The notes under the pieces are model-generated. The model ran no database searches, was not told where the DNA came from, and saw only the letters and a list, made by a program, of their open reading frames with translations. From the NCBI GenBank assembly GCA_051882415.1, contig JBJERU010000003.1, positions 5,273 to 69,272 on the forward strand: a stretch of 64,000 bases of DNA, in the 5' to 3' direction. The stretch's first letter is position 1; every line of letters starts with the position of its first letter. Both the position numbers and the translations under genes were made by a program. This document shows positions 7,179 to 38,618 of this stretch, one piece after another. Source of the DNA: Faecalibacterium sp. Its GTDB lineage: Bacteria; Bacillota; Clostridia; Oscillospirales; Ruminococcaceae.

Positions 7179-7200
7179 TAAACGAAGAAAGGTTCTTTTC

Positions 7201-7560: not shown

Positions 7561-7745
7561 GGCTGGTACAGTATCCGCAGGACAGGCTCTATCAGGAGAT
7601 GTCCTTTCTGGCATACTACCTGCACTGGCCGATGGAAGACCTGATGAATATGGAGCATCGGGAGCGTCGGCGCTGGTGCGAAGAGGTGTCGGCCATCAAT
7701 CAGAAGCTGAACGGGACCGAACACAAAAAGATCGAGTTCAAATAA
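7545..7745 (+). CDS. DUF6760-like ORF, not in the ORF track; probably expressed as a -1 frameshift extension of the chaperone
   Basis: Reads LVQYPQDRLYQEMSFLAYYLHWPMEDLMNMEHRERRRWCEEVSAIN; frame open 7533-7745 with no ATG/GTG/TTG before 7599; overlaps slippery T TTT TTA at 7545-7551. Confidence 0.82.
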   Translation, partial: FFIGLGLVQYPQDRLYQEMSFLAYYLHWPMEDLMNMEHRERRRWCEEVSAINQKLNGTEHKKIEFK

Positions 7746-7757
7746 AGGTGGGACAGG

Positions 7758-8258: not shown

Positions 8259-8282
8259 CGGGCGGAAAAGAGAGGTGCCAGC

Positions 8283-12151: not shown

Positions 12152-12241
12152 GCCGGAGCGACGCAGTCCGGCTGCATCCAAAACCAGAACCTGTGCTGGC
12201 CCGCACAGAAATGTGGATCATGCAGAAAGGAGGCGCAGGCC

Positions 12242-12967: not shown

Positions 12968-12994
12968 GCGATACAGGAAAGGAGAGCCAACACA

Positions 12995-14910: not shown

Positions 14911-14965
14911 GAAAACGGCTTCTGGAGCCGGAGGCCGGAAAGCCCCGGCCAGGGGAGGGGATCCG

Positions 14966-15382
14966 ATGGACAACAGGGATTTTTTGGGCCGCGGGCTGAG
15001 CTTTCCGCTTCGTCTCGACCCCCGGACAGGACGTTTTGCGGTCAGCAGCCACGAACAGAGCATCCGGGAATCGGTGGGCATCATTTTGGGCACCTATCGG
15101 GGCGAACGGGTCATGCGCCCGGAGTTTGGGGCAAACACGGCGGATTATGCCTTCGCTCCCTCGGATTCCTCGCTGCAGGAGAGCATCGCCTACGACCTGC
15201 AGCGGCAGCTCGTGTTGCAGGAGCCGCGCATCCGCGATATCGAAGTCACCTGTGAGGAGCCGTCCCGTCAGACAGGGACACTGGTGGTGCATGTATCTTA
15301 TACGGTGCGCAGCACGAACAATCGCTTCAATCAGGTCTATCCGTTCTATACACAGGGCAGCCAGCCGGAAGAGGAAGAATGA
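14966..15382 (+). CDS. GPW/gp25 baseplate protein (Afp9-like)
   Basis: FLGRGLSFP, GERVMRPEFG, EPRI, TNNRFNQVYPFY. Confidence 0.96.
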   Translation: MDNRDFLGRGLSFPLRLDPRTGRFAVSSHEQSIRESVGIILGTYRGERVMRPEFGANTADYAFAPSDSSLQESIAYDLQRQLVLQEPRIRDIEVTCEEPSRQTGTLVVHVSYTVRSTNNRFNQVYPFYTQGSQPEEEE

Positions 15383-15385
15383 GCT

Positions 15386-18295: not shown

Positions 18296-18331
18296 ACAGA
18301 CCGGATATTTTTGCGAAAGGAGGGTGCAGGG

Positions 18332-20404: not shown

Positions 20405-20440
20405 TTAGGATCACTTTGGCCTGCCAGGAGGAGGCGTTTT

Positions 20441-21559
20441 ATGAAGAAAAAACAGCAGCGCCTGGTATGGTGTCTGCGTGAGCAATGGCTCTCCGCTCTG
20501 CGGTGCAATGTAGAGCTGCGGGAGGATGCGCTGGTGCTGGATACAAAGCGTTGCAGCGCGGGGCTGGTCTGTCTGCCCGCCGCAGACAGCGGCGAGGCCG
20601 GCTATGCCTGGGGACGGGTAACGCTGGACTGTGAACTGCCGCAGGGCAGTTCTCTGCGGGTGTACGCTCTGGCACTGGATGAGCGGGAAAGCTTTTGGCA
20701 GAGCCTGAGCGCATCCATGCAGGAGGCCGGGCAGGAATACGGCCAGGCGCAGCACCGGGCCGCGCAGATGTTTGGCGCCCCGGCAGGGGCAGGGGCAGGG
20801 CCGGATCTGCTTGTGGAGCAGCGAGGCCGCTACCTGTGGCTGGCCGTTGAATTCCTGTCCGGCAGTGCGGAGGATGTGATCCTCCGAAAAGTCACTTTCT
20901 GGATGGGCGGAGACCGGATGAGCGATTATCTCCCGGCGATCTATCGGGGCGACCGCACCACCGAGCGCTTTTTGGAGATCTTCCACAGCATGCTGCAGGA
21001 TCTGGAAGAGCGGATCAACGATATCCCCGCCCTCCTGGACTATGAAAATGACAGCGAGGCCATGCTGCGGTATCTGTCCGGGTGGCTGTGTCTGGACGGC
21101 AGACATGCCGACCCGCGTGAGCTGCGCCGCTGGGTGGCATCTGCCATGGAGGACGTGCGCACCATGTACACGCCCGCCGGCATCCGGCGCACCGTCCGGC
21201 GGCTGACCGGACAGGAGCCGATCCTGATCGAGTACGCGCAGGTGGATCCCAACGCCCCGGACTGCGTGGATCAGGAGACCTGCCGCCGTCTGTTCGGTGA
21301 GGATCCGTGCCGCTTTTTCGTCCTGCTGAAGGAGGATGCCTTCCAGACGCGGGAGGAGGCCCAGAGCTTTATGGACCAGATGCGGCAGCACATCCCCGCG
21401 CAGATGGAGATGCAGCTGGTGCTGCTGCGCAGCAAGATCCATCTGGGCGGGCACACCTATCTGGGCATCAATTCCACGGTCAGCGGGTTTATGCCGGCTG
21501 CGGTGGACGAGAGTACCGCGATCCACTTTGATACGGTGATAGGAGAGGAAGCAAAATGA
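20441..21559 (+). CDS. Phage tail protein I-like baseplate component
   Basis: YLPAIY, ERFLEIF, LRYLSGWL, P..IEY, IPA, YLGINS; synteny after baseplate J. Confidence 0.82.
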   Translation: MKKKQQRLVWCLREQWLSALRCNVELREDALVLDTKRCSAGLVCLPAADSGEAGYAWGRVTLDCELPQGSSLRVYALALDERESFWQSLSASMQEAGQEYGQAQHRAAQMFGAPAGAGAGPDLLVEQRGRYLWLAVEFLSGSAEDVILRKVTFWMGGDRMSDYLPAIYRGDRTTERFLEIFHSMLQDLEERINDIPALLDYENDSEAMLRYLSGWLCLDGRHADPRELRRWVASAMEDVRTMYTPAGIRRTVRRLTGQEPILIEYAQVDPNAPDCVDQETCRRLFGEDPCRFFVLLKEDAFQTREEAQSFMDQMRQHIPAQMEMQLVLLRSKIHLGGHTYLGINSTVSGFMPAAVDESTAIHFDTVIGEEAK

Positions 21560-23334
21560 AACATTCCGGTTATTTCCCGCTGGAGCGCAATCGCTATTAT
21601 TACGGCAAGCTGCTGACGGTCCGCGATTTTGAGCGGGAGCAGGATTATTTCCGCACAAAGCAGGAGCTGAGCAACCGGATGCTGCATGGCGCGGGCGTCG
21701 TCTGCGGCATGGGCGTCACGGTCAGCGATGACACCACCCTTCTGATCGAGAGCGGCATGGCGCTGGACTACCATGGGCGTGAGCTGGTGATCGAGGAGCC
21801 GCTGGTGCGCAAGCTCCAGATGCTGGAGGGCTACGAGGCATTAAAAAAGGATCGGCTGGATGCGTACCTGTGCCTGGCTTACCGGGAGGAGGAGATCCAG
21901 CCCGTCAACGCGGTAGGGGTGGATATCGAGTCCAGCCATCAGTACAATGTCACGCGGGAGAGCTGCCGGCTGTATCTGAGCAGCGAGGCGCCGCCCTACC
22001 GCCAGATCCTGGAATGCCAGGGTGAGCAGAACATCAATGTGCTGTTCGCGGACGAGGATCTGACCCTTCTTCTCACTGCGCCATCCACGGTCTGCGCGGG
22101 CAGCGAATTCACGGTGCGGATCCTGATCGTGAAGAACCATTCGGTGCCGCCCATCCGCTTCACCCTGGAGGGCGAGAGCAACCTTGTCCAGACGGAGAAC
22201 GGGCGGCTGCGGCTGGAGTATGCCCAAAGCCCGGAGGAAAAGAAGAATGTGATCTGGACCAGCTTCCGCGTCCAGGCGCAGGAGCTGAGCGACCTGCAGA
22301 GCCAGCTGTTCCCGGTGGAGGCGGAGCTGGATCTGGAGGTGGGCGGCCGCCGTTACAAGCATTATCTGACGCTGGACGCCCCGGTGCGGCTCTGTGCCAG
22401 CCGCGAAAGTGTGGCCGCCGCCATCCGCCGGGAGGATACCCTGGCGCGGCATCTGGCGGGCGCGGAGCTGCCGATCTACCTGGCCAAGCTGGAGCTGATC
22501 CGTTCCAGCGGCGGTGTGTTCCTCAGCTCGGCAACGGCGCTCCCCTTTGAACAGAGCCTCCGGGTGGAGCATCCGGCTGAAACGACCCCTCATCAGGAGA
22601 TGGAGGTCAAAACGACAGTCCGCTCGCTGGAATACTGGCAGAAGCCGGAGGTGCAGGCGCGTTATCACGCCGCCACCGATACGCTGGCGCTGGATTTCGG
22701 CATCCCCTCGCCGGAACAGTACGATTATTCGGTGAGCCACGGTGTGGTCGAGCTGGAGATGTCCGGAGGCATCCGTGTGAACAACCGCTATTTCAGCCAG
22801 GAGATCCCCCACGGTTTGGGGCAGGGCGCGGTGGATGTGCGCCTGAGCGTGGAGTTCCCCAACCGCTCGGGCGAGACGCTGCTGCTGGTGGGCAACAGCG
22901 AGGTGTTCAAGTCCAAGGCGGTGGAGGAGACCCCGCCCTGGGTGGAGGCCGCCGCCATCGTGTACCCCGAGCGCGGAACGATGAAGATCGGCGTCTGGCT
23001 GCACGATACGGTGGGCGGAAGCCGGCTTCGGGTGCATTATTTTGCCCAGAAGCCGGAACACGATACCAGCCGCCTGATGGGACAGGATCGGGTCACGATC
23101 CAGATCACGCCAGAGATCACCCGCATGAAAAAGCGGGAGCCGTTCCAGTTCAAGGCGGAGGTCAACGGCAGCGTGGACAAAGCCGTGCTCTGGGGGGTGC
23201 GGGACGAGAACGGCGGAGAGATCGACCGCAACGGCATCTATCACGCGCCCGAAACGCCGGGGACCTATGAGGTGACTGCGACCGCGCGTGCGGACGAGAA
23301 CGCCCGCGCCAGCGCTTTCGTGATCGTGGAGTAA
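21556..23334 (+). CDS. Tail fibre / baseplate appendage-like protein with C-terminal Ig-like domain
   Basis: N-terminal ERNRYYYGKLLTVRDFEREQDYF...GAGVVCG...GMALD docking module; C-terminal beta-sandwich (VLWGV..NGGEIDRNGIYHAP..PGTYEVTA). Confidence 0.72.
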   Translation: MKHSGYFPLERNRYYYGKLLTVRDFEREQDYFRTKQELSNRMLHGAGVVCGMGVTVSDDTTLLIESGMALDYHGRELVIEEPLVRKLQMLEGYEALKKDRLDAYLCLAYREEEIQPVNAVGVDIESSHQYNVTRESCRLYLSSEAPPYRQILECQGEQNINVLFADEDLTLLLTAPSTVCAGSEFTVRILIVKNHSVPPIRFTLEGESNLVQTENGRLRLEYAQSPEEKKNVIWTSFRVQAQELSDLQSQLFPVEAELDLEVGGRRYKHYLTLDAPVRLCASRESVAAAIRREDTLARHLAGAELPIYLAKLELIRSSGGVFLSSATALPFEQSLRVEHPAETTPHQEMEVKTTVRSLEYWQKPEVQARYHAATDTLALDFGIPSPEQYDYSVSHGVVELEMSGGIRVNNRYFSQEIPHGLGQGAVDVRLSVEFPNRSGETLLLVGNSEVFKSKAVEETPPWVEAAAIVYPERGTMKIGVWLHDTVGGSRLRVHYFAQKPEHDTSRLMGQDRVTIQITPEITRMKKREPFQFKAEVNGSVDKAVLWGVRDENGGEIDRNGIYHAPETPGTYEVTATARADENARASAFVIVE

Positions 23335-23362: not shown

Positions 23363-24118
23363 ATGGGGCCTCTTTTGATCCGGGAACGGTACAAGGTCGT
23401 TCAGGTGCTGGACGCAGCCCCTGACTATGCAGCTCTGTGCGCGGTGGATATCCGGCAGCGGGAAAAGCCGCAGGTACTGCTCAACGTCTACGAGGGCGCC
23501 TGCCTGCGCAAATATCTGCGGCTTTACCAGGGGCTTCAGGACTGCCCGGCGTTCCAGGGCGCTTTTATCGAGCGGGGAGCGCTGGTGGCTGTGTTCCCCA
23601 TGGAGAAGGGCGTTGGCATCGACGAAGTGTTCCAGCGGGGGCTTGCGGTCCCGTGGGAGCTTCGGCTGGCGGCAGCCGACGACCTGATGGCGCAGGCTCT
23701 CCGGCTCTCCGAACTTCCGCCGGAGCTGGCCTGCCCTACGCTGCTGAGCGGACAGGTGCGGGTGTTCCCTCAGGAGCGCAGGCTCGCGCTGCGGTGGCTG
23801 GTGCGCCCGATGGACTGTGCGCTGAACGAACGGGAACTGCTGCTCCTGCTGGGCGATCAGCTCCACAAGCTGCTGCTTCCGCGCTGGGACGCGCCGCAGA
23901 CCGAGCGGGATTTTTTGTGCGAGATGGAGGCGGGGCGCTTTTCCTGTATGGTGGATCTCTACGCGCACTGGCGGGCGCTGCTCCCCCGGCTGCGGGAGGA
24001 GTATGAAACGCTGGAAGCGATGCATACGCTTTCCCGTTTTCTGCGGCTGGCAAAACGGAATGGAAAAGACGCCTTCCGGAAAGCCTTATCCCATCGGAGA
24101 AGGGAGGACGCCCGATGA
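23363..24118 (+). CDS. Hypothetical protein with probable degenerate protein-kinase-like fold
   Basis: ERYKVVQVL, VLLNVY and VFPMEKG align by eye to kinase N-lobe/hinge, but the Gly loop, catalytic Lys, HRD and DFG are absent. Confidence 0.5.
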   Translation: MGPLLIRERYKVVQVLDAAPDYAALCAVDIRQREKPQVLLNVYEGACLRKYLRLYQGLQDCPAFQGAFIERGALVAVFPMEKGVGIDEVFQRGLAVPWELRLAAADDLMAQALRLSELPPELACPTLLSGQVRVFPQERRLALRWLVRPMDCALNERELLLLLGDQLHKLLLPRWDAPQTERDFLCEMEAGRFSCMVDLYAHWRALLPRLREEYETLEAMHTLSRFLRLAKRNGKDAFRKALSHRRREDAR

Positions 24119-26616
24119 TCCGCAACCTGAAACGCTTTTTTCTTTATCTGCTGTTTGCTGCCTCGGCTGCTGCGGTGCTGGCGGCCTTCCGCCCCGGCTG
24201 GGTGAAGAGCGCATTCGACGCGGCTTTCCGGGAGACCAGCACACTCCAGTATGAGCAGATCGTCTCCAACAAGTCCGGCGGCTACTGGGCGCTGGGACAG
24301 CAGAACGGTGAGATGTATCTGGCCAGCGGGACGCTGGGCGGCAGCCGCAGCTCTCAGTTCTCGCTGTCCCGTCTGGGCATGGAGAAAGACTGCCGGGTGC
24401 AGCGTCTGTTCGCCTGCTCGGACGGCAAGCTTCTGCTGACGGCGCAGGAGGGCATCGCCACGGGGCTGTATTTGTTCGACCCGAAAGAGAAGGAGCTGGT
24501 GCTGCTGCTGACCCTGGCGGAGGAACAGACGATCTCTCAGTTCGTGGAGGAGGCCGGCAGTGTGACCTTTGCCACAGAATACGCCGGGATAGAAACGATC
24601 TGGGAATTTGAACTGGGGCACAGCTGGCTGGTGAAGCGGAGCCAGATCTATCAGGGCGGCAGAAAAGCGCTGCTGGCCCTGCCGGACGGCAGCGTTCTGC
24701 GGCAGGAGGGTACATCCTTTACGGATGGCACCGTGACGGTCAGCGCTCCGGGTGAGCCGCTGGTCTCCCGGAGCTGGTATACGACCGAAGCGCTGTGGTA
24801 TCTGGACGACCTGACCGGGACGCTGTGGAAAGGGGCCATGGGCCGCGGTGCGGTCAGCCAGTTCACGCTGGCGCAGGCCCGGGAGAGCTGCGGCAGCGCG
24901 GTGATCGACCTGAGCATCTCGGACGGCGGCGTTCTGGTGCTGACCGAGGCGGGCACGCTGTACCGCTGGCGGAACACCCGCTCCGGGTTCGAGGATCTGA
25001 GCAGGAGCCTGCTGCCCTCCCGACCGATATCCATTCTGCTGTCTGCCGTGACGATCGCGGCGGTGCTGCTGGCGGCGCTGGCTTTGTGGTATCTCGTGTG
25101 CGAGCACCAGCAGATGCAGATCCCGCTGGTGTTCCAGACCGGGCTGATCCTGTTGCAGGCCATCGTCCTGATGGCGTTCGCCGTGTATCAGTGGGTCACG
25201 ATCCCTTACTATCAGCAGATCTCGCGGGACTGGCTCATCCAGACGCTGCAGGCCGCCAGCCGTGCGCCGGAGATCTCGGATAGCATCTTCCAGACACTCC
25301 GTTTTGAAAAGCAGCAGGATGCCTGGTATCTGATCCGGGACGGCCAGCCGGTCATGACAGCGGAGTGCCTGATGTATGGTGACTCCTTCCTGGATGGACT
25401 GGAGCACGCGGCGCAGGGCGCGCTGGCAGAATACAACGAGAACGGCAGCCACCGCATGGCGTGGTTTACCACCGATGCACAGGGGCAGGTGTTCGCGGTC
25501 ACAGTGGATGACGCTCCCTATACGGAAAAATACCAGAAGGGCTGCCGCGAAACGCTGGTGGCGGCGATCCCGTTCAGTGCCGCCGTGTGGCTGATCGTTC
25601 TGCTGATCCTGTGCGACTATACTGACCGTCTGCACCGCATTTCGGACGATCTGCTCCGTATCGAATCGGGCCGCACGGGTCGTCGGCTGGAGGATCGGCG
25701 CGGCGACGAGCTGAGCGCGCTGGCCGACTCGGTCAACACTATGGCGGAGCTGGTGGAAAAGAAACGCCGACAGGATCTTTCGATGCGGAGCGGCTACGCC
25801 TGCTTTTTGCCGGATTCGCTCATCAAGCTGCTGAACGTCAAAAGCGTGGAGGAGATCGACCAAAAGACCTTTGCCCGCCTGGAAAAGGCGACCCTCCATG
25901 TGGAGCTGGTCTTTGATCCCAGCATCTATGAAAGCCATTCCCGCCTTCTGTTCGACTGTATGAACGAGATCATCGGCCGGACGGCGGGGCATATCTCGGC
26001 CAAGGAGGGGGTCATCCTGAGCTTTTCCTACAACGGGTATGATGCGGTCTTTCCGCCGGATGGCATCAATGCGCTGAGCGCAGCGGTGGCCATCCGTCAG
26101 GAAACGCTGGCGATCAATGAAGAGCACCAGCGGCGCGGGCTGCCGGAGGTGAAGCTGTACGCGACGCTGGACACGGGCGAACTGATGGTGGGCGTGGTCG
26201 GCGGAGAATCCCGGATGCAGATCGTCGCCCTTTCCTCCAGCTTCGGCATCAACCGCGCGCTGGGGGCGCTGTTCCAGCGGGTGGACGCGAACATCCTCTG
26301 CACCGAAAAGATCGCGGTGCACGCGGAAGGCGTGCGCAGCCGATACATCGGCAAGCTGCTGGAAACGACAGAGGGGGTGCGCGTGTATGAGATCTATGAA
26401 GGCGACGACCTGGCGCTGCGGCTTGAAAAGAAAGAGCACGCAAGCCTGTTTGCGGAAGGCATATATCTTTTTTATGCCGGTGAGTTTGAAAAAGCCAAGC
26501 GCATCTTTATGAACATCGTCCGCACGACGCCCCGGGACGGCGTGGCGCGGCACTACCTCTATCTGGCAGATCAGTTTCAGAAATCGCCGCCCGCCCGGAT
26601 CGGACTGGATGTATAA
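24115..26616 (+). CDS. Membrane protein with HAMP and degenerate class III nucleotide cyclase domain
   Basis: Several hydrophobic helices, HAMP (RGDELSALADSVNTM), cyclase-like FLP..LIKLL and DTGELMVGVVG, TPR-like tail; catalytic residues substituted. Confidence 0.8.
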   Translation: MIRNLKRFFLYLLFAASAAAVLAAFRPGWVKSAFDAAFRETSTLQYEQIVSNKSGGYWALGQQNGEMYLASGTLGGSRSSQFSLSRLGMEKDCRVQRLFACSDGKLLLTAQEGIATGLYLFDPKEKELVLLLTLAEEQTISQFVEEAGSVTFATEYAGIETIWEFELGHSWLVKRSQIYQGGRKALLALPDGSVLRQEGTSFTDGTVTVSAPGEPLVSRSWYTTEALWYLDDLTGTLWKGAMGRGAVSQFTLAQARESCGSAVIDLSISDGGVLVLTEAGTLYRWRNTRSGFEDLSRSLLPSRPISILLSAVTIAAVLLAALALWYLVCEHQQMQIPLVFQTGLILLQAIVLMAFAVYQWVTIPYYQQISRDWLIQTLQAASRAPEISDSIFQTLRFEKQQDAWYLIRDGQPVMTAECLMYGDSFLDGLEHAAQGALAEYNENGSHRMAWFTTDAQGQVFAVTVDDAPYTEKYQKGCRETLVAAIPFSAAVWLIVLLILCDYTDRLHRISDDLLRIESGRTGRRLEDRRGDELSALADSVNTMAELVEKKRRQDLSMRSGYACFLPDSLIKLLNVKSVEEIDQKTFARLEKATLHVELVFDPSIYESHSRLLFDCMNEIIGRTAGHISAKEGVILSFSYNGYDAVFPPDGINALSAAVAIRQETLAINEEHQRRGLPEVKLYATLDTGELMVGVVGGESRMQIVALSSSFGINRALGALFQRVDANILCTEKIAVHAEGVRSRYIGKLLETTEGVRVYEIYEGDDLALRLEKKEHASLFAEGIYLFYAGEFEKAKRIFMNIVRTTPRDGVARHYLYLADQFQKSPPARIGLDV

Positions 26617-26646: not shown

Positions 26647-26961
26647 ATGCCCGCACGAACGACCGAAGACTTTTGGCTGCGGCTCGATGCAGCCGTGCCG
26701 CAGGCTCCGACCCGGGAGCAGAGCCTTGCGGCGTGGGCCAATGAGGTCCTGCGGAACGAGCCGGCAGCTCCCCGTGACCAAAAGGCGGACAAGCCACGCC
26801 CGGAGCCGGACGGTTATCTCCGCCAGACGCCGGTGCAGCCCATCCGGGAATGCCCGGGCTATCGTCTCAGAAGGATGAAACAGGTGCTGTTCTGGTGCGC
26901 CGTGGGCGCGGCTGCTGTCACATTGTATCTGTTGATCTATTCCGGCGTCCTTCGCCTGTAA
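26647..26961 (+). CDS. Small protein with C-terminal transmembrane helix
   Basis: AAGGAGG SD; VLFWCAVGAAAVTLYLLIYSGV hydrophobic tail. Confidence 0.7.
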   Translation: MPARTTEDFWLRLDAAVPQAPTREQSLAAWANEVLRNEPAAPRDQKADKPRPEPDGYLRQTPVQPIRECPGYRLRRMKQVLFWCAVGAAAVTLYLLIYSGVLRL

Positions 26962-26989: not shown

Positions 26990-29692
26990 ATGTTCAGCCA
27001 TTTGCTGCGGCAGATCGTTCTGTCGATCGGCGTGGTGTTCCGCACGATCCGGGCGTTCTTCGTCCGGCAGATCTATACCGTGTTCGCACGGGTCAAAAGC
27101 GCGACCAGCCTGACGCGTCAGGCTTCCAAAATCGCGCCCCAGCTCCTGAAAACAGCGTCGGCTGCCGGGCAGAAGCCGACCCGTCGGGAGGACTATGTGG
27201 AAACGGGCCAGCTGTACATCGCAAAGTCGCTGATCGTCATGGTGGTCATCGGCCTGATCCTGCTGGCTCTGCTGTTCCGCTTTGCGGCCTGGCCGCTGCT
27301 GTGCCGCTGGTTCTTTACGATGAAGTTCTGGGAACAGGATAAGGCGCTGGCAGACCACACCGGAAAGGTCATCGTTTACTATGACGCGGAAAAGACACAG
27401 CCGCAGTTCAAAGGGGCTGTAAAGGACGGGACTTTGCAGGGCAGGGCCGAGCAGTATGCCCCGGATGGTCAGATCCTCTATGCAGGGAACTTTGTCGATG
27501 GTCTGTATGAAGGCGAAGGCGTGCTTTATCAGGATGGACAAAAGCTCTATGAAGGCACCTTTGCCGGAGGGCTTTACAGCGGGAGCGGCAAGCTTTATGA
27601 GAATGACCTGCTCGTTTATGACGGCAGCTTTTCCGAGGGCCTGTACGATGGGAGCGGTACGCTGTTCCAGGATGGGCAGTGCATCTACGAGGGCGGGTTC
27701 CTTTCGGGAGAACGCAGCGGCATCGGCACGGCCTACCGCAGCGGAGAGCTGCTCTATGAGGGAGAATTTGCGCGTGACCAGTACAACGGCACCGGCACAG
27801 CCTACCGCAGCGGCGCACTGTACTATAAAGGCGGGTTCCGGGACGGCCTTTTCGACGGAGAAGGGACCGAATATTATTCGGACGGTTCAGTCCGCTACCG
27901 GGGCGGCTTTTCCGAGGGCTTGTACTGCGGCAGCGGCGTTTTGAACCGCCGGGATGGGACGACGATCCGCGGGAACTTTGAGGCCGGGCAGACGGTGGGA
28001 GAAGCGACCTGCGAAAAAGAACAGATACAATATTACCGCGGCCTGCTGAGCGGCTTCTGGCCGAATATCGCGGGCACCTTTCTGGATCCTGTGGGCAAGG
28101 AGCTGTACTGCGGCGCGGTGGCAGCCGGCGCCCCGGATGGCGGCGCCCTGCTCTCTCTGCCGGTCAGTGAGCTGCGGGAGCTGCTGGGCGGCTCACTGGA
28201 GGAAACGCTGGGAGACAGCGGCTTCGTCCTCTCGGTGCGCGGCCTGGGGCTGTCCTTCTCCTGCTCGTTTGCGCAGCAGGATGCGGAGGCGGCGGTGAAG
28301 GCCATGTATCTGTATCCGGGCGGGACACAGACGCTGCTGTGGGACAGCGCGGCGGGCTTTGCCCGGGCTGCGGCGGCAAGCGGGCTGTCCCTGTCCGAGC
28401 CGACCCGTCTGCGGGGCAGGCCGAAGCTCCCGGAGGGTGTGCCGGTCATGGTGACAAAAAACTGGTATGCGGTGGAATATTCCCTGGAAAATGGAACCCT
28501 CCGTCTGTGGAGCGAGACGGAGGACGGGGCGCTGGCTCTGGCCGAGTGGACGTCCGGGGACGCGGGATCGGATGAAAAATGGGTCGTTCTGGAAGGGAGT
28601 GCTTCCGGCGGAGAAAGCGCTGCCAGCGCAGCGCTGAGCGGGTTGTTGAACCGTCTGGGGCTGGCAAAGGAGAGCGCGGCCGCCGCTGCGGTGGACAATC
28701 CCTTCTGCGGCGGAGAAGATCCGGCGCAGCTTCTGACGCTGGCAAAGGAAAGCGGCCAGCTCTATCCTGTGCTGGAAGCGGCGGCAGAATACCTCCGCAG
28801 CGCGGAGGATCTTGCCGCCGTACAGGAGAACGCGGCGCTCTGCTATGAGCTTCTGGATGATGAAAAAGCGCTGCTGCTGGCAGGCCGGGGCGATGAGGCG
28901 CGGCTGGAAACACTGGAACAGCAGTGCGCGGAGCTGGAGCTGCGGCAGGAGCAGGACACCGTCGAGCTGCGCCGCCAGACGCTGGCAGTCAAAAGCATGA
29001 CCGGCGCGGATCTGAGCGCCTACGATCTCCAGACCCTGCCGGTGGCCTTCCGCGTCTCGGAGCTGGACGCCGACGGGCTGGGCAAGGCCCTGATCCGTCA
29101 GGCGCAGCGCACAGCCGCCGCGCAGCTGCTGGGCAAGGACGGCACACAGACTGTGTCCCGCGTCGATGAGCAGGCGATCCTGGATCAGATGGAGCTGGAG
29201 CTTCTGGAACTGGATCTGGCGTATCAGAAGATCGGGCAGGCCCGCGACCGCTATGTATCTGCGCTGGACAGCCGGTCGAAGCGGGAACGGGAGTATGCCG
29301 TGGGCGCAGCGGAAGAACGCCAGGTGAAAGAGGCCCGGATGGAAGAAAATACCCGGCGCGCCGCGCTTTATGACGCGCTGCTGACCTTTACCCGGCAGGC
29401 CGCCGCGCTGGATGAGCGCGCGGGCGGCTGGATCGCCCGGGAATATGACTGGTATGCGGACATCCTGTCGGCGGCAGCCGAAAGCTCCGGTGCACAGGAC
29501 GGCGGCAGCGCCGTTCCTGCTGGCACGGCAGAGACAACAAGCCCCGCCGGAGGCATGCCGGACCAGGCTGCGGGCACGGATATGCCCGATGGCGCTGCCT
29601 CTGGCAAGGAGGATGCGCCGCCTTATCAGGGGCTGCTCGACCAGGTGATGGACTTTGCGCAGGGGCTGCTTCCCGGCAAGGATAAGACATAA
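26990..29692 (+). CDS. Membrane-anchored MORN-repeat protein with TolC-like helical C-terminus
   Basis: TM helix at about residues 78-105, roughly nine YxGxFxxGxxxGxG repeats, two long helical hairpins with an outer-membrane-efflux-like pattern. Confidence 0.8.
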   Translation: MFSHLLRQIVLSIGVVFRTIRAFFVRQIYTVFARVKSATSLTRQASKIAPQLLKTASAAGQKPTRREDYVETGQLYIAKSLIVMVVIGLILLALLFRFAAWPLLCRWFFTMKFWEQDKALADHTGKVIVYYDAEKTQPQFKGAVKDGTLQGRAEQYAPDGQILYAGNFVDGLYEGEGVLYQDGQKLYEGTFAGGLYSGSGKLYENDLLVYDGSFSEGLYDGSGTLFQDGQCIYEGGFLSGERSGIGTAYRSGELLYEGEFARDQYNGTGTAYRSGALYYKGGFRDGLFDGEGTEYYSDGSVRYRGGFSEGLYCGSGVLNRRDGTTIRGNFEAGQTVGEATCEKEQIQYYRGLLSGFWPNIAGTFLDPVGKELYCGAVAAGAPDGGALLSLPVSELRELLGGSLEETLGDSGFVLSVRGLGLSFSCSFAQQDAEAAVKAMYLYPGGTQTLLWDSAAGFARAAAASGLSLSEPTRLRGRPKLPEGVPVMVTKNWYAVEYSLENGTLRLWSETEDGALALAEWTSGDAGSDEKWVVLEGSASGGESAASAALSGLLNRLGLAKESAAAAAVDNPFCGGEDPAQLLTLAKESGQLYPVLEAAAEYLRSAEDLAAVQENAALCYELLDDEKALLLAGRGDEARLETLEQQCAELELRQEQDTVELRRQTLAVKSMTGADLSAYDLQTLPVAFRVSELDADGLGKALIRQAQRTAAAQLLGKDGTQTVSRVDEQAILDQMELELLELDLAYQKIGQARDRYVSALDSRSKREREYAVGAAEERQVKEARMEENTRRAALYDALLTFTRQAAALDERAGGWIAREYDWYADILSAAAESSGAQDGGSAVPAGTAETTSPAGGMPDQAAGTDMPDGAASGKEDAPPYQGLLDQVMDFAQGLLPGKDKT

Positions 29693-29707: not shown

Positions 29708-30316
29708 ATGGCAGATTATACGGCGCTCTATGAAACAGGGAACAGTCTGGTGGAGCTTTTGCGGGCAAATCTGACGCCCGAGCCGATCAGCAAGCGGGAG
29801 CTGATCTCCCTTGGCTCTCCGCTCCAGAACGAGAACAGCCAGATGACCGTCTATCTCTTTCATATCGAGGAGGATGTCCAGAGCGGAAATCGGGGCTATG
29901 TGCCCATTTCACGCGGGACCGAACGGATGAGCCCTACCAGCCTGACCGCAAGCTTCCTCATCACGGCGCATTCCAAGGCGCCGCTGCTGATGCGGGAGCC
30001 GGATCAATATCGGATGATCGGCGCGGCCATCCAGACCATCAAGGACACGCCGATCCTGCCGACGGGATATCTGAACGGCTCGCTGGAACAGAGCGGCGCG
30101 GAGCTGCGCCTGCTGCTGGAACGCCCCAGCTTTGACCAGATGCTGAAGATCTGGAACAGCACCTCCACACCCTATAAGCTGTCCATCGTGGTGCGGGTCA
30201 CGGGCATCCAGATCGACTCCAGACGCACGCGGAGCATCCGCCGTGTCACGGAGGTGGAGATCGGGACGGCTCAGCGCCCGCAGAGGCTGGAACTGGAACA
30301 GGAGGAAACAAGATGA
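29708..30316 (+). CDS. Pvc16/Afp16-like cap (DUF4255)
   Basis: SLVELL, VYLFHIEED, FLITAH, KIW....PYKLSI pattern; synteny. Confidence 0.88.
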   Translation: MADYTALYETGNSLVELLRANLTPEPISKRELISLGSPLQNENSQMTVYLFHIEEDVQSGNRGYVPISRGTERMSPTSLTASFLITAHSKAPLLMREPDQYRMIGAAIQTIKDTPILPTGYLNGSLEQSGAELRLLLERPSFDQMLKIWNSTSTPYKLSIVVRVTGIQIDSRRTRSIRRVTEVEIGTAQRPQRLELEQEETR

Positions 30317-31026
30317 TCCGGATTCGTCTGAGCACGATCCTCTATGTGCGGGACGGTTTTACAGGGCTTGTGCCCGCGTGGGGAGCGCTGCGCTGCACGG
30401 TGGATGGGCGGCCTTTCCGTCCGCTGGTCAGGGAAGGCGGAGCTTACCTGTTCCTGGATCTGGAGGAAGGCCCGCATACCTTCGTCCTGACCGGGCTGCA
30501 TTACCAGCCGGAGCGCCTGTTGCTGGAGCAGGGCTGCCGGGAGGCTGTAGTGACCATGAAACCGGACGATACCTATCCCTTTGGCCGGGAATGCCCCCGG
30601 CTTTGCGTCCGGCTGCCGGCGGCAGGGGCAGAGCTTTGGGTCGCGGCCGTGAACGCGCGGACGGAGCTGAAGCTTGCACAGTCCGGCGCGGCGGCGGGAG
30701 ACCAGGGGGTGCAGCTGTTCTGCCGCGAAAGCGCCCGACGGATGGCGCTGCCGCGGGATTATCTGCTGGCGGATCCCGCCGCGCCCGAGGTGTGCCGGAT
30801 CGGAGAGCTGGGGATGAACGCGCCGACGCTGCTGTCCCAGCCGCTGGAACATGGGCACAAGCGGGGCTGCGGACTCTATCCGGCACAGTGCTGCCAAGCC
30901 GATGCGGAAGGATTTGTCCGGACGGCATTCCCCGAACCGGGAGAGGCGGTGCTGTACCGCCCCGGCATGCCACTGATGACGCTGGCATTGCAGATGGGAC
31001 TCAACACGCTGGAGCTGTCCGGCTGA
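30313..31026 (+). CDS. Hypothetical eCIS protein (beta-rich, follows Pvc16)
   Basis: ATGA overlap with the cap gene; DGFTG, GAYLFLDL, P...YP motifs as in genes at this position. Confidence 0.7.
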   Translation: MIRIRLSTILYVRDGFTGLVPAWGALRCTVDGRPFRPLVREGGAYLFLDLEEGPHTFVLTGLHYQPERLLLEQGCREAVVTMKPDDTYPFGRECPRLCVRLPAAGAELWVAAVNARTELKLAQSGAAAGDQGVQLFCRESARRMALPRDYLLADPAAPEVCRIGELGMNAPTLLSQPLEHGHKRGCGLYPAQCCQADAEGFVRTAFPEPGEAVLYRPGMPLMTLALQMGLNTLELSG

Positions 31027-31043
31027 AAAGAAAGGAAACGACG

Positions 31044-31406
31044 ATGGGAGCAAATCCGATCACGGAAACGTCTCTGCTGACCTGTTCGTTCGGGTCGGCT
31101 CCGGCAAGCCTGAACGTGACCAGCCAGCCGCTGGTCAAGATGTGCGGCATGAAGGCCGGGACCATCCTGGACAACAAACCGCTGATGTTCGGTACCTGCG
31201 TCAGCCCCGCGAACCCGGAGTTCGCCCTCACGGGCAAGCCTGCGGTCTGTGTGGGCGCGGCGCAGATCTCCGCGCCGTGGATCAGCAGCTCTACCGTGCG
31301 GATCTGCGGCAGGCCCGCCATCCACAAGGACTGCAAGCTGATCTGCAATTACGGCGGCGTCATCCAGGCCAGCATGACGCCGGCCATGCTGGTCAGGCTG
31401 GGCTGA
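31044..31406 (+). CDS. DUF4280 PAAR-like spike tip protein
   Basis: LTCSFGSAP, FGTCVS, PW, CKLICNYGGVI; start at ATG 31044 after AAAGGA. Confidence 0.92.
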   Translation: MGANPITETSLLTCSFGSAPASLNVTSQPLVKMCGMKAGTILDNKPLMFGTCVSPANPEFALTGKPAVCVGAAQISAPWISSSTVRICGRPAIHKDCKLICNYGGVIQASMTPAMLVRLG

Positions 31407-31425
31407 ACACAGAGGAGGAAGCAGG

Positions 31426-33567
<2,142 letters not shown>

Positions 33568-33603: not shown

Positions 33604-35628
33604 ATGAAACCGGAAAAGATGAGGAAAGCAAAGCTCCCGCCGCTGCGTCTCAAGACCAAGATCAATTTTCTGTTCGTGCTGTTTGCGGTCATCGTGGGCA
33701 TCCTGCTGTATGTGTGCAGCAACCTGGTCCTTCTGGCAGTTTCGGCCAAGGGGTATTGGGACACTGCCCTGAGCACGGCCTATATCGTGGCGGATGCGCT
33801 GCGCACCGCAGACATCGAACAGAGCATCCTGAACATGGAGCAGAACGAAGCCTATGAAGAAGCGTTCCAGAAGGTGAAGATGTACCAGAAGGTACTGTAC
33901 ATGCACGACGTGGTGGTTTTTGTTCCGGGCAGCAATTCGTATCAGATCTATATGGCCGCGCAGGACGAGGAGGAGGGCGAGGCGCTGGGATTCGGCATGA
34001 CCTTCCCCTATCAGGAGCTGCACTATGAGTATCTTCTGCCGCTGGTGGAAAAGGGTGTGGCGCTGGACTACCCGGTCTTCAAGGCGGAGAACCAATATCA
34101 CGAGATCTCGGGCCTGGGCGGGATCGAGGTCTGTGCCTGGGCGCCGGTCAAGGACAGCAGGGGAAGGGTGATCGCCATGGTGGAGGCAGATTTGACCTTC
34201 GCTCAGGCCCTGCGCGATGCACAGCCCTTTATCTCGGCGATGATGATCCTTTATGCCGTGGTCACAGTTCTGTACGGCGCTATCCAGATCACCGTGGTAC
34301 GTCGGATGATCCTTCGGCCGCTCCAGAAGGTCACTGCGCGCGCCAAAAACTTTGCCGCCGGGGAGACGCTGGGGGCTTTTGACAACGATATCCAGACCGG
34401 GGACGAGCTTCAGACCCTGAATGAAGCACTGGAAAAGATGGCAGAGGACATCGTCCGCTATACCGAGCGCCAGGCCGATATCATGGCAGATGAAGAACGC
34501 ATCGCCGCCGAATTGAAGGTGGCGTCGGAGATCCAGCGCTCCCTGCGCCCGGAGCAGCCTGAGCCGTTCCTGCAAAAGTATGGCTTCTGGCTGGGCGAGC
34601 ATCTGGTGGGCGCGGCGGAGTACGACGGGGATTTCTACGATTATATCCCGCTGGATGACGCGCGGCTGGCCATCGTGCTGTGCAGCATCGACTCCAACGG
34701 GCTGGGCGCGGCGGTCAAGCTGCTGTCCGCCCGCACCATCATCCGCGGCCAGCTGCTGGGCGGCGTCAGTCTGGAACAGGCCATGTGCCGCATCAACCGT
34801 CAGCTCTACCAGATGCTCCAGAACAGCGGCCCCATCCGGGTGTTCGTGGGCGTCCTGGATGGAGAGCACAGCACACTGACCTATATCAATGCGAACAGCA
34901 GCGCGCCCATCCTGATGTGCCGCGGCCAGGCGTACACCATGCTTCCCGGACCGGGCTACGCCCCGGTCGGGCAGGTGGAGAACATCTCGTATCAGGAGCA
35001 GCGGGTGTTCCTCCAGCAGGGGGATCGGCTGCTGTGGTATTCCGATGGTGTGCTGGATGCCCTGGATGAAGAAGGCCGCCCGTTGGGGGTGGATGGCCTC
35101 AAGCAAGTGCTGAGCCGCAGGCGTGTCAAGGACGCCCGGCAGCTTTTGGAAGAGCTGAGCGCGCCCGGCGGCGTGCTGAAGGATCTTTTTGGGGGTTGTA
35201 CGCTGATCCTTTTGGAATGCCGCAGCACCAACAGGGAGCGGGCACAGCTCCGTGTGGCCCCGGAAGAAGAGCACCGGGAAGAAGTCCTTTTCTTTGTAAA
35301 GGAGCAGCTGGAGCTGCGGGGCGTTCTGAACCGGGAACGCGCGCAGATGCTGGTCTGTGCGGAGGAGCTGTTCTCCATCTTCTGCCGCTATACGCAGCGG
35401 GGCATGATCGAGGTGAGCTGCGCGCCAGAGAAAGACCGCGCAGTTTTGCGGTTCATCGCAGACCTGAATGGCCTTGACCCCTTTGAGCACGATGCGGGCG
35501 AGCTGATGGAAAATGCCGTGCAGTATATCCGCAAGTACAGCGGGAGCGCATCCTCCCGCATCTTGTACGGCCATACCATCGTGGAGATCACGGCAAAGGA
35601 TGCGTCGGCACAGACGCAGGCAGAATAA
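33604..35628 (+). CDS. Membrane sensor with HAMP, SpoIIE/PP2C-like and RsbW-like domains (catalytic motifs degenerate)
   Basis: Two TM helices, HAMP (TGDELQTL), ERIAAELKVASEIQ linker, GDFYD, GDRLLWYSDG, C-terminal HATPase_c_2-like EE helix. Confidence 0.85.
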   Translation: MKPEKMRKAKLPPLRLKTKINFLFVLFAVIVGILLYVCSNLVLLAVSAKGYWDTALSTAYIVADALRTADIEQSILNMEQNEAYEEAFQKVKMYQKVLYMHDVVVFVPGSNSYQIYMAAQDEEEGEALGFGMTFPYQELHYEYLLPLVEKGVALDYPVFKAENQYHEISGLGGIEVCAWAPVKDSRGRVIAMVEADLTFAQALRDAQPFISAMMILYAVVTVLYGAIQITVVRRMILRPLQKVTARAKNFAAGETLGAFDNDIQTGDELQTLNEALEKMAEDIVRYTERQADIMADEERIAAELKVASEIQRSLRPEQPEPFLQKYGFWLGEHLVGAAEYDGDFYDYIPLDDARLAIVLCSIDSNGLGAAVKLLSARTIIRGQLLGGVSLEQAMCRINRQLYQMLQNSGPIRVFVGVLDGEHSTLTYINANSSAPILMCRGQAYTMLPGPGYAPVGQVENISYQEQRVFLQQGDRLLWYSDGVLDALDEEGRPLGVDGLKQVLSRRRVKDARQLLEELSAPGGVLKDLFGGCTLILLECRSTNRERAQLRVAPEEEHREEVLFFVKEQLELRGVLNRERAQMLVCAEELFSIFCRYTQRGMIEVSCAPEKDRAVLRFIADLNGLDPFEHDAGELMENAVQYIRKYSGSASSRILYGHTIVEITAKDASAQTQAE

Positions 35629-35643
35629 AAAGGAGGAGCCGGC

Positions 35644-36135
35644 ATGCAGGAATATGTACAGCAGCGCAAGCGTCCGGGCACGCTCCCGCCGTCCTTTCGC
35701 GGCGCGGAGACGGCCCGCAGCGTCCCCAACAGCGCAAGGCTGGCTGCATCGGAGACACAGGCCAGCCCCTACAGCGACGCGCTGCGGGAAAAATTTGCCC
35801 GACACCAGATCCCTTCGGCGGAGCGGGAGGCCGACCGCCTTTCGCAGGGCCTTACGGCACAGACGCCGGAGCAGGTGCGCCAGCAGCTGGGCGAACGGCT
35901 GGGCGCGGATTTCAGCGGGGTACGATTCCATACGGACGCGGCCTCGGCGGGCCGGGCGGAAAGCATCGGCGCGCGTGCCTTTGCCACCGGGCGGGACGTC
36001 TACTTCGGGCAGGGCGGCTTTGACGCGGGCGTTGCCGCCCATGAGCTGGTGCACACCGTGCAGCAGGGCGTGGTGCCCGCTGCGGTGCCGACCGTCTCCG
36101 CCCCGGTGGGCGAGGTGCAGATGATGCCCAAGTGG
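35644..36135 (+). repeat. 492-bp near-identical direct repeat, copy 1 (cargo N-terminus)
   Basis: Matches 38127-38618; the only difference seen is CAG/CAA at codon 7. Confidence 0.95.
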
Positions 36136-37989
36136 TTAAAGAAAGTCGGAGGCGGCATCGCAGATGCGGCGGCGGAATTGCACAGGCTGACCCTTGGCAA
36201 GCTCAAGCGCAGCCATGCCCGCGCCGAGGAAGATTTGCTCCGAAGTAAAAAGGATGGTACATGGGATAAGATCGGCTGGTGGAACAAAACCCGGTTTGCA
36301 GTCAAGAACCCGCTGGTATTCCTCAAGAATTTCAGAGACAAGGATGTAGACAGGCGGTATAACAACCTGGTGGACGAAAGCCGCTGGGACAATGAGGAAG
36401 CCATTGCACAGATCCTGTCCCAGAACCGTCGGACAGTTCTGGACTGGAAGCAGGAGGACGAACCGGCAGGCGGCCAGCAGGCGCAGCCGGACGCGCAGGT
36501 TCAGGAAAATGCGCAGGCGCAGCCTGCTCCCCAAAAGCTGGCCAGGCGCCCGCAGGATGCCGGATACGAAAAGGCATGGGGACTGCTGACCGAACAGGTG
36601 AAAGGGGACAGCGTCCACATCCGCGAGGGCCTGGAGCATCTGGGCGGGATCAAGGGCGACAAGCAGGATTCTATCATGGATCAGATCGGCCTTGGCAAAG
36701 CCTATTATGACCTGGGCACGGGTGCTTTACAGGGAGTGACCCGTTCCATCGGAGACCTGGCGCGGAACGGCAGAAAGCTGCAAAACTCTTTTGCCTCGGG
36801 CGTTAAGGGCAGCACCACCGAAGCCGCTGCCAATCTGCTTTCGAGCGGCCTGAAGGGGGCGTCCAGTACCTTCAATACGGTCAAGGCCGGTGTGAGGATT
36901 TTTGGCGGCAAGGATCGGGCGAACGCACTGGGGGTCGTCCCGGTGCCGAAACTTCTGAGCAAAGACACCATCCTCGGCAAAGCACTGGGGACTGGGGACA
37001 AGGGGCTGGGCGTCAGCAGCATTCTGAGCACCGCCTCTGCGGGCCTGGGCATGGCTAAGAGCGTTGGACAGTTTGCCTCGAATGCGGGCATCCACAGCAA
37101 GACCAAAAAGATCAATGAGGAGTTTAAGGAACTCTATCAGGATCTGAGAGGCGTTGGCAGGCCGCTGGCTGAAGTTTCTGCGGAAGCTCCCCTCGGCACT
37201 GTGGAGAACCAGCATGTGCGCAAAATGTTCCAAAGCTCGCTGCTGGCGCGCAGTACCGCCAAGGGCAAGATGATCGGCGCAGGCTTTGATTTTGTGGACA
37301 ACGCGGCCACCGTTGGCGGCAACTTTGTGCCCCCATTTTTCAAACCTCTGGTCAAAGTGGGAAAGGCGCTGGTGTCGTTTACCAAGGATCTGATCGTGGA
37401 CAAGGTAAAAAAGAATACAAACAAGCAGCTGCTGAACGATGAACTGGGAATGGATTCTCAGGTGCAGGCGGCGGCGCGGATGATGCTTGCCCGCAAAAAT
37501 GATTTTGCCCGGAGCGTGGCGGAGATGGATGACCGCGAGGCGCCGGAGGATGTGACCCTGGAGAATATGGGGCGCGTCGAAAGGAACGAGCTTCTGCGCA
37601 AGGCCAAGCACGCGGTGCTCAAATCCTACGGCTTCAAGAGCGGCAAGCGCAGCGAGGCGGTCGGCAACCTGATCCTGGAACGCAGCAAATATCTGGCACA
37701 GCAGGCCAACGATGCCCAGAACAATGGACAGAGCGGCGAGGAGGCCAAGAAACTGGTAAAGGCGATGCGGGTCGGCCGCGTGAAGGACAGCGAAGGCAAC
37801 AAGAGCTATCAGGCCAGCGATATCGCCACACGGATGGGTCTGGAGGGCGGCAAAGCGGGCCTGGATCTTATCAAGCAGAGCCGCGGCAGCACCATCCAGT
37901 ATTACGCCAATACCGGAACCGGATTTCTGGACAGCCTGCGCTCCTTCTTCTGGGGCGCGCCCATGGTGAAGCGCAAAAAGAAAAACTGA
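35644..37989 (+). CDS. DUF4157 (eCIS core domain) protein 1, putative cargo/effector
   Basis: AEREAD, LGADFSGVRFHTD, IGARAFATGRDVYF, AHELVHTVQQ; unknown Gly/Ala/Lys-rich helical C-terminus. Confidence 0.9.
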   Translation: MQEYVQQRKRPGTLPPSFRGAETARSVPNSARLAASETQASPYSDALREKFARHQIPSAEREADRLSQGLTAQTPEQVRQQLGERLGADFSGVRFHTDAASAGRAESIGARAFATGRDVYFGQGGFDAGVAAHELVHTVQQGVVPAAVPTVSAPVGEVQMMPKWLKKVGGGIADAAAELHRLTLGKLKRSHARAEEDLLRSKKDGTWDKIGWWNKTRFAVKNPLVFLKNFRDKDVDRRYNNLVDESRWDNEEAIAQILSQNRRTVLDWKQEDEPAGGQQAQPDAQVQENAQAQPAPQKLARRPQDAGYEKAWGLLTEQVKGDSVHIREGLEHLGGIKGDKQDSIMDQIGLGKAYYDLGTGALQGVTRSIGDLARNGRKLQNSFASGVKGSTTEAAANLLSSGLKGASSTFNTVKAGVRIFGGKDRANALGVVPVPKLLSKDTILGKALGTGDKGLGVSSILSTASAGLGMAKSVGQFASNAGIHSKTKKINEEFKELYQDLRGVGRPLAEVSAEAPLGTVENQHVRKMFQSSLLARSTAKGKMIGAGFDFVDNAATVGGNFVPPFFKPLVKVGKALVSFTKDLIVDKVKKNTNKQLLNDELGMDSQVQAAARMMLARKNDFARSVAEMDDREAPEDVTLENMGRVERNELLRKAKHAVLKSYGFKSGKRSEAVGNLILERSKYLAQQANDAQNNGQSGEEAKKLVKAMRVGRVKDSEGNKSYQASDIATRMGLEGGKAGLDLIKQSRGSTIQYYANTGTGFLDSLRSFFWGAPMVKRKKKN

Positions 37990-37997
37990 TATATCCC

Positions 37998-38064
37998 GGC
38001 CCACACGGATGTGTGGGCTGTGTGAAAAGCTTTTTCGGTTCCTTTTTCTCGAAAAAGGAACAAA
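37998..38064 (+). repeat. Two-hairpin intergenic element, copy 2
   Basis: GGCCCACAC-GGAT-GTGTGGGCT hairpin, then 42 bp identical to 3739-3780. Confidence 0.88.
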
Positions 38065-38126
38065 CTCCCTGCTTTATAAATGAACCGTGGAAGTGATCGG
38101 GCGTCTATCGCCCAAAAGGAGCCTTT

Positions 38127-38618
38127 ATGCAGGAATATGTACAGCAACGCAAGCGTCCGGGCACGCTCCCGCCGTCCTTTCGCGGCGCGGAGACGGCCCG
38201 CAGCGTCCCCAACAGCGCAAGGCTGGCTGCATCGGAGACACAGGCCAGCCCCTACAGCGACGCGCTGCGGGAAAAATTTGCCCGACACCAGATCCCTTCG
38301 GCGGAGCGGGAGGCCGACCGCCTTTCGCAGGGCCTTACGGCACAGACGCCGGAGCAGGTGCGCCAGCAGCTGGGCGAACGGCTGGGCGCGGATTTCAGCG
38401 GGGTACGATTCCATACGGACGCGGCCTCGGCGGGCCGGGCGGAAAGCATCGGCGCGCGTGCCTTTGCCACCGGGCGGGACGTCTACTTCGGGCAGGGCGG
38501 CTTTGACGCGGGCGTTGCCGCCCATGAGCTGGTGCACACCGTGCAGCAGGGCGTGGTGCCCGCTGCGGTGCCGACCGTCTCCGCCCCGGTGGGCGAGGTG
38601 CAGATGATGCCCAAGTGG
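38127..38618 (+). repeat. 492-bp near-identical direct repeat, copy 2
   Basis: Matches 35644-36135, ending at ...CAGATGATGCCCAAGTGG. Confidence 0.95.

Follow-up and report, generated by a model that had tools for sequence, protein, structure and literature searches.

Within a complete contractile injection system (CIS) cluster on the 64,000-nucleotide stretch of DNA analysed here (the window), one gene encodes a 900-aa protein composed of a basic N-terminus, a single transmembrane (TM) helix, a MORN-repeat stalk, a DUF4309-like domain and a C-terminal domain that is homologous to TolC, of the outer membrane efflux protein (OEP) family. We read this protein as an envelope anchor or scaffold of a membrane-docked CIS, with the TolC domain as its outer, oligomerising cap, and we put the probability of this reading at about one half. 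The open reading frame (26990-29692, plus strand) contains all peptides quoted in an earlier, sequence-only reading of the window. It lies within the cluster and on its strand, and its assignment by that reading to a CIS operon was confirmed with Pfam: sheath, tubes, gp25, baseplate J, hub/spike, PAAR-like tip, Pvc16 and AAA genes, the gene set of extracellular CIS (eCIS), occur together around it. Since the closest named homologues come from Faecalibacterium assemblies (90% and 57%), we take the host for a monoderm of the class Clostridia. The source genome is 86% complete.

Topology was judged by hydropathy and charge. Residues 1-80 of the window protein include 13 K/R against 3 D/E, and one hydrophobic segment is found at about 81-99, as the sequence-only reading had it. 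Exactly one TM segment was present in 75 of the 76 homologues with an N-terminal domain, nearly always around residue 80, and the segment preceding it carries on average 15 K/R against 3.4 D/E. This excess, together with the single TM helix, leads us to predict an N-in, C-out orientation. The full-length AlphaFold2 model, built with 38 homologues (mean predicted local distance difference test score (pLDDT) 76.8, predicted template modelling score 0.48), shows N-terminal helices of low confidence and a helix at 79-107, followed by 23 strands between residues 125 and 378. Then come an alpha/beta domain (379-523), a linker of loose structure, the helical domain and, at the end, a disordered tail. 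As the strands make up about 11 hairpins, the 'about nine' MORN-like repeats counted earlier were correct in kind (Pfam MORN, E 1.2e-15) and slightly low in number. The MORN signature of 23-residue YxGxFxxG hairpin repeats is present, with seven strict motifs at 23-residue spacing, and this part resembles Trypanosoma brucei MORN1 (structural Z score 19.3, the highest) and junctophilin. Among homologues, the distance from TM helix to middle domain ranges between 187 and 350 residues and changes mostly in steps of 23.

A middle alpha/beta domain, also proposed earlier, is present (378-523). Its model resembles DUF4309/YjgB (4ygt; Z 9.0, 122 aligned residues, root-mean-square deviation (rmsd) 3.4) and also CAP-associated domains. 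The score is a middling one, with weak Pfam matches in two homologues as further support. Its profile gave no informative match among PDB sequences, and its Atlas matches stayed below 0.9. The linker that precedes the helical domain ranges from 35 to 433 residues among homologues, the three longest examined being Gly/Ser-rich. As judged by column conservation (0.80 for the N-terminus, 0.68 for the MORN part, 0.58 for the middle domain and 0.60 for the C-terminal domain), the protein is most conserved at its predicted cytoplasmic side.

The C-terminal domain contains the two expected helical hairpins, at 591-630/636-671 and 727-770/776-810 in the model, joined via a 22-residue helix. Its kinship to TolC is visible only with profiles and with the model, not in single-sequence searches: the window protein alone gave no OEP match in Pfam or NCBIfam and no TolC by phmmer. 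The OEP sequence signature thus appears at the family level only, PF02321 being matched at E<=1 by 22 of the 38 homologues (best 1.1e-8). A 68-row profile of residues 572-832 ranked TolC chains 1-11 among PDB sequences (best E 9.6e-4) and, against 1.84 billion representatives, connected the fused family to free proteins of ~280 aa and these to full-length OEPs. The domain alone was modelled with pLDDT 95.9. Foldseek then placed TolC-family proteins in the lead (TMq up to 0.64), and in a wide structural search of 48,161 chains the top seven were all OEPs (Z 13.3-16.7), followed by a match at Z 7.1. The best of them, 8zar_G, covered 244 of 261 residues at rmsd 3.5 and Z 16.7. A generic coiled coil, the outcome that would have spoken against the earlier suggestion, is rejected, since ferritin-like and other bundles reached Z <=7.1 against 13.3-16.7 for OEPs. 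The TolC likeness, first noted by eye, is above chance, and the domain is homologous to TolC.

The domain corresponds to the coiled-coil half of a TolC protomer, ~6 nm tall, from which the barrel and the upper alpha-barrel have been lost. No strand of 3 or more residues occurs in the model where a four-strand outer membrane barrel would be expected, and the TolC strand region is an insertion relative to the domain profile. The equivalents of the long helices H3 and H7 measure 40 and 44 residues (~60-66 A) versus 67 reported for OprM (PMC8277102), short of the full-length 67-residue helices and of a 100-A alpha-barrel. The short helices are near those of OprM, with 36 and 35 residues for the H4/H8 equivalents and 22 for the H6 equivalent, compared to 36 and 23 (PMC8277102). 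As both the barrel and the pump partners are lacking, we do not file the domain as an efflux channel. In three relatives it is tandem-duplicated in one chain with a 35-40-residue linker (L035:10001-13135, L074:9983-13126 and P0036). In P0112 (894 aa, genomic context unknown) an M23 peptidase lies C-terminal to it (E 1.1e-30), suggesting that the C-terminus reaches the peptidoglycan. In relatives where the protein is split, the separate TolC-like protein carries a signal-peptide-like N-terminus (judged by eye), which places the TolC domain outside the cytoplasm. The extracytoplasmic location supposed in the sequence-only reading is therefore supported both by the predicted topology and by these split forms.

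We further examined the linkage of the gene to CIS. A genome scan returned 74 loci, nearly all from Clostridia where titles name the group, and including the cultured strains Oscillibacter valericigenes Sjm18-20, Flavonifractor sp. An306 and An82, Agathobaculum ammoniilyticum and several Lachnospiraceae. The TolC domain is fused at 67 of them, cut at contig ends at 5 and split at 2; fused forms are over-represented because the scan patterns came from the fused family. Gene order is near-fixed: baseplate J, J, Tail_P2_I, Cis13-family, kinase-like, HAMP/cyclase-like, small TM, fusion gene, Pvc16, unknown, DUF4280, AAA. A neighbour from the window's cluster was found at all loci except one 2.5-kb contig (73/74), and a sheath in 20/20 genomes chosen for long contigs. 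In the reverse direction, the sheath was searched in two even samples, with matches in 14 among the 401 genomes sampled from the phylum and in 12 among the 400 from the class (G000 in both). A TM-MORN gene stood among the CIS genes in all 11 genomes whose sheath is a close relative, by alignment over the N-terminal half, compared to none linked in the 13 with a distant sheath, one of which had unlinked MORN matches. CIS clusters of another layout (G105, G244) gave no match to the membrane module.

The TolC domain is never fused in these 11 close-sheath genomes. In five (G813, G586, G816, G732 and G072) a separate OEP-like gene with a signal-peptide-like start lies directly 3' of the TM-MORN gene, and in the fetched regions of the other six no TolC-like gene stands beside it. 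We therefore consider the TolC domain accessory: the TM-MORN stalk is the constant part, while the TolC part is fused, separately exported or absent. The cleanest split, on metagenome contig L092, consists of a TM-MORN-middle protein (655 aa), a 283-aa mini-TolC with a signal-peptide-like start and Pvc16. The separate G072 protein matches OEP at E 5.9e-7, and the TolC-like genes directly 3' of TM-MORN at L062 and L073 do so weakly (E 0.03-0.04). Profile comparison with the fused domain gave clear matches for the 283-aa type (P0133, E 2.8e-16) and the G813 protein (E 6.6e-9), and non-significant ones for L062 and G072 (E 0.46 and 0.017); these two larger proteins appear OEP-like by Pfam, with weak orthology to the fused domain.

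Other arrangements were seen around these genes. In one sub-lineage, large secreted-type proteins are encoded 3' of the separate OEP gene (L086:4383-6830, L097:13005-16424, L098:11279-14011, L099:1733-4576); the first has a Cu_amine_oxidN1 domain and the other three match it by BLAST. At L083:14002-15579 (G254) the TM-MORN gene is on the opposite strand to its neighbours, with its own AT-rich upstream region, and at L085:16179-17078 (G072) the same is true of the strand of the kinase-like gene. An IS605-type (TnpB-like) gene is inserted directly 5' of the homologue at L051:8660-9823. Genes of ABC_sub_bind type and genes with MFS domains are repeatedly found next to the cluster in several distant genomes (L062, L073, L083, L086, L093, L095).

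Table 1. Features of the CIS cluster in the window and domains of the fusion protein
Feature	Position	Strand	Basis or remark
CIS core: sheath, three gp19 tubes, tail chaperone, probable tape measure, CIS-tube/LysM, hub	4799..21559	+	Pfam, PHROGs
CIS core, continued: spike OB-fold, gp25, two baseplate J, Tail_P2_I	4799..21559	+	
Cis13-family N-terminal domain and Ig/PKD-like region, 592 aa; candidate baseplate-to-membrane connector	21556..23334	+	
Soluble kinase-like protein, 251 aa; likely pseudokinase (lead only)	23363..24118	+	
Four-TM receptor-like protein, HAMP and degenerate class III cyclase-like domain	24115..26616	+	
Small protein with C-terminal TM helix, directly upstream of the fusion gene	26647..26961	+	
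TM-MORN-DUF4309-like-TolC(OEP) fusion protein, 900 aa	26990..29692	+	
Residues 1-78: basic amphipathic N-terminus, predicted cytoplasmic	26990..27223	+	Top conservation, mean column identity 0.80
Residues 79-107: single TM helix	27224..27310	+	
Residues 125-378: MORN-repeat beta-sheet stalk, ~11 hairpins, ~11 nm (estimate)	27362..28123	+	
Residues 379-523: alpha/beta domain, DUF4309/YjgB-like and CAP-associated-like	28124..28558	+	
Residues 525-571: low-confidence linker	28562..28702	+	
Residues 572-832: TolC/OEP protomer without beta-strands, long helices shortened	28703..29485	+	
Residues 833-900: acidic tail, mostly disordered, unconserved	29486..29692	+	
Pvc16 cap, unknown 237-aa protein, DUF4280 PAAR-like tip, WHD-AAA ATPase	29708..33567	+	Pfam
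HAMP-SpoIIE phosphatase, two eCIS_core (DUF4157) cargo candidates	33604..40304	+	Pfam

The trio of kinase-like, HAMP/degenerate-cyclase and small TM genes (23363-26961) is conserved directly 5' of the fusion gene (Table 1). For the 251-aa protein, kinase clusters scored 0.93 from language-model features only, and no significant match was found in PDB or Pfam searches; in G072 the protein itself ends in a TM-like segment, which gives it a putative likeness to EssB/YukC. Among 69 aligned members of the cyclase-like domain, Asp is not common at the first metal position and is present in 29 at the second, and the Asn/Arg pair is mostly replaced, as judged against a reference motif. Both partners are likely to be pseudo-enzymes. 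The 592-aa protein matches NF053767 with E 1.4e-22, below the family cut-off.

Further observations concern the remainder of the window and possible cargo. RNA records covering window 24000-33000 were looked for and none was listed, a result that has no bearing on expression. The two eCIS_core proteins (35644-37989 and 38127-40304) share identical N-termini of ~160 residues and diverge in C-terminal parts that match no known family, and they are likely cargo. Elsewhere, an eCIS_core protein with an inositol polyphosphate kinase match (L016:21139-22875, E 3e-6) and a PI3/PI4-kinase match (L081:1405-3564, E 2e-4) are cargo candidates. Two small proteins flanking the cluster (4243-4704 and 40347-40838) look by eye like YbjN/CesT-type chaperones and had no Pfam, NCBIfam or PHROGs match. 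The probable tape measure (8726-12151, 1141 aa) has a long internal repeat and no family match. Downstream, a MacAB-type operon behind a two-component system (50409-56317) encodes an adaptor with two HlyD_3 matches, an ABC ATPase, a MacB permease and an SLH protein without TolC-like match. This operon gave no match to the domain profile, and it was considered and rejected as partner of the TolC domain.

In the anchor reading, the conserved cytoplasmic N-terminus together with the kinase-like, cyclase-like and small TM neighbours would dock the baseplate via the Cis13-family protein, and the MORN sheet would extend into the wall as a stalk whose length can be adjusted. Self-association of the TolC domains, in the simplest case to trimers, would tie several stalks together at the outer wall or S-layer; such a clamp would hold the firing site, the TolC domain not being the tube's channel. 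The reading is supported by the TolC fold, the one-TM topology, the linkage to CIS, the conservation peak on the cytoplasmic side, the M23 fusion and the lack of lysis matches: no holin or endolysin was found among the cluster proteins (30 searched in Pfam, 15 in PHROGs; unrecognised or unlinked genes are possible). In a separate search, no phage record matched. Anchors of this kind have been reported in Streptomyces (CisA, PMC12237407) and for an archaeal type VI secretion system (T6SS; Hbor_38620, PMC11566945). Proteins of the eBAP3 class, to which the 592-aa protein may be assigned by its likeness, are reported to resemble TssK (PMC12923769).

Several points weigh against this reading. Physical contact between the fusion protein and CIS parts is presumed. 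A cap, a probable tape measure and a Cis13/fibre-type protein are typical of released particles, and this cluster has genes for all three; Bacillota eBAP3 proteins have been read as tail fibres (PMC12923769), and Streptomyces IId systems are described as acting intracellularly, without crossing the wall (PMC10066040). As the neighbours have signalling-type folds, the module could be regulatory only, and missing lysis matches do not prove missing lysis genes. Moreover, of three genomes from the same genus that carry the gene, two yielded no match to the sheath (G404 and G415, 77% and 70% complete), and the close-sheath group was drawn after the first sample had been seen, its members being kin and not independent.

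The signalling neighbours could mean, although we find it doubtful, that the protein is only a sensor or trigger: the outer arm of a complex with the kinase-like, cyclase-like and SpoIIE phosphatase proteins that bears no load, senses contact or damage to the wall and governs the expression or contraction of the CIS. MORN sheets serve to bind proteins, and HAMP, cyclase-like, kinase-like, SpoIIE and STAS proteins are all found nearby. A role as sensor and checkpoint has been proposed for CisA as well (PMC12237407). However, loss of most catalytic residues from the cyclase-like domain, in the alignment described above, fits a scaffold, the genes sit between baseplate and cap genes and not among regulators, and the roles of anchor and sensor can coexist.

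A more ambitious proposal, to which we give a similarly small chance, is that this lineage represents a true T6SS-like machine, with which monoderm gut Clostridia fire through their own wall. The baseplate would be held by a non-homologous replacement of TssJLM (pseudokinase, pseudocyclase and TM-MORN stalk), and the TolC-derived helical domain would be re-used as a port of more than three protomers across the outer wall or S-layer. The CIS tube is reported to be 80 A wide (PMC12546770), and simple geometry with an assumed helix spacing gives lumens of 23-33 A for a ring of three TolC protomers, 61-75 A for six and 87-104 A for eight, so that only rings of ~8 or more could pass a tube. A trans-wall conduit in the narrower sense, such a ring standing on a fence of MORN stalks with the tube fired through it in a TssJLM-like manner, seems unlikely. 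It is favoured by the extracytoplasmic channel-family fold on a membrane-anchored stalk, by a summed length of stalk, middle domain and TolC domain of ~20 nm (estimate), by the tandem domains of L035, L074 and P0036, which show that protomers per chain can vary, and by the M23 fusion; eCIS_core cargo genes like those here are also reported for contact-dependent archaeal T6SS (PMC11566945). Nevertheless, outer membrane factors are described as trimers (PMC8277102), whose estimated lumen is too narrow for the tube, and flexible linkers of up to 433 residues fit poorly to a rigid aligned channel. A part absent from about half of the lineage, with no TolC-like gene beside TM-MORN in 6/11 genomes, is unlikely to be an obligatory channel. 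Trimer width and this absence are our reasons for preferring an anchor or scaffold over a conduit. Thus, of the 'tunnel or scaffold' put forward in the sequence-only reading, the scaffold survives as the best interpretation, whereas a tube-guiding tunnel is disfavoured by the narrow trimer, the ~6 nm height, the variable linker and the 6/11 absences.

Because the domain is a true OEP homologue, it could also work alongside an adaptor and a transporter as an exit duct, for efflux or type I secretion, and be a mere passenger of an ordinary released eCIS, which we regard as very unlikely. TolC-like proteins of monoderms are indeed reported in pump operons (PMC8809574), the genome has adaptor genes, including those of the MacAB-type operon (50409-54042), with no Pfam OEP match elsewhere in the genome, and MFS and MatE genes lie near some loci. 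Yet Pfam finds no adaptor gene in the window's cluster, and a scan of 10 kb on each side, covering 29 of 42 accessory representatives, gave one adaptor-like family at 2/74 loci, ~9 kb off. The MacAB operon is 21 kb away, a separate unit behind metabolic genes and a two-component system, and the position among CIS genes is fixed whether the protein is fused or split. Least probable is a self-protection or release factor of a released eCIS, acting as surface decoy or receptor for incoming particles or as non-lytic release aid: it would suit the surface location, the cap, tape-measure and fibre-type genes and the lack of a recognised lysis gene, but conservation is strongest in the cytoplasmic N-terminus, needless for a surface decoy, and the other-layout clusters mentioned above have no such module.

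In the literature searched, with supplements and most subscription journals outside its scope, no paper on this protein or lineage was found; the clusters may be listed as eCIS in dbeCIS and in tail-fibre tables. Firing through a Gram-positive wall has been stated as a problem (PMC10066040), and CIS membrane adaptors are already known from Streptomyces (PMC12237407) and a haloarchaeal T6SS (PMC11566945), as are barrel-altered TolC-like proteins from monoderm Firmicutes, in pump operons and S-layer-bearing species (PMC8809574). The present results indicate that a CIS lineage of common gut Clostridia possesses a conserved membrane module of its own, directed at the envelope. The use of a TolC fold without barrel and pump, attached to an injection machine, was not found in that literature. 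Even a modest reading makes the protein a CIS membrane adaptor of a new kind, and since the module occurs in cultured strains the question is directly testable.

Compared to known systems, the C-terminal domain shares with the TolC/outer membrane factor family (PF02321; E. coli TolC, CmeC, VceC, CusC, MtrE) the two pseudo-repeats, the two coiled-coil hairpins and Gly at their tips. It differs in being fused behind an inner-membrane TM-MORN stalk in a monoderm, in lacking beta-strands, in its shorter long helices and in having no cognate adaptor or pump in the cluster. As in the TolC-like proteins of monoderm Firmicutes (Stubenrauch et al. 2022, PMC8809574), the OEP domain lies outside the sole membrane; those proteins are reported from tripartite-pump operons with a hydrophilic barrel region modelled, whereas here there are no strands and the setting is a CIS cluster. 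Like TssJLM and haloarchaeal Hbor_38620 (PMC11566945), the fusion protein is a cluster-encoded membrane protein that tracks one CIS clade, and as in T6SS a neighbour, here of probable Cis13/eBAP3 type, would belong to a class reported as TssK-like (PMC12923769). The closest Cis11 relatives of the haloarchaeal T6SS are reported to come from Bacillota (PMC11566945). The analogy with TssJLM drawn earlier is functional only: at the sequence level, no Pfam match to TssJ, TssL or TssM occurred among the 30 cluster proteins or among the 25 families shown for the 38 homologues. In contrast to T6SS, the ATPase is a WHD-AAA of eCIS type and not ClpV, and Hbor_38620 has six TM helices (PMC11566945) against one in the window protein. 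A parallel in topology and gene position is Streptomyces CisA (PMC12237407), which is likewise single-pass, N-in and encoded 3' of baseplate genes in a monoderm CIS cluster. CisA is predicted to oligomerise via its outer domain, a likeness to the oligomerisation that we propose here. Its N-terminus is reported as unstructured and its outer domain as solute-binding-like (PMC12237407); here the N-terminus is the best-conserved part, the outer portion combines MORN, DUF4309-like and OEP folds, and further conserved membrane partners accompany the protein. Finally, the 23-residue beta-hairpin repeats are those of MORN1 and junctophilin, with the difference that in the present protein they are predicted to form an extracellular stalk of variable length.

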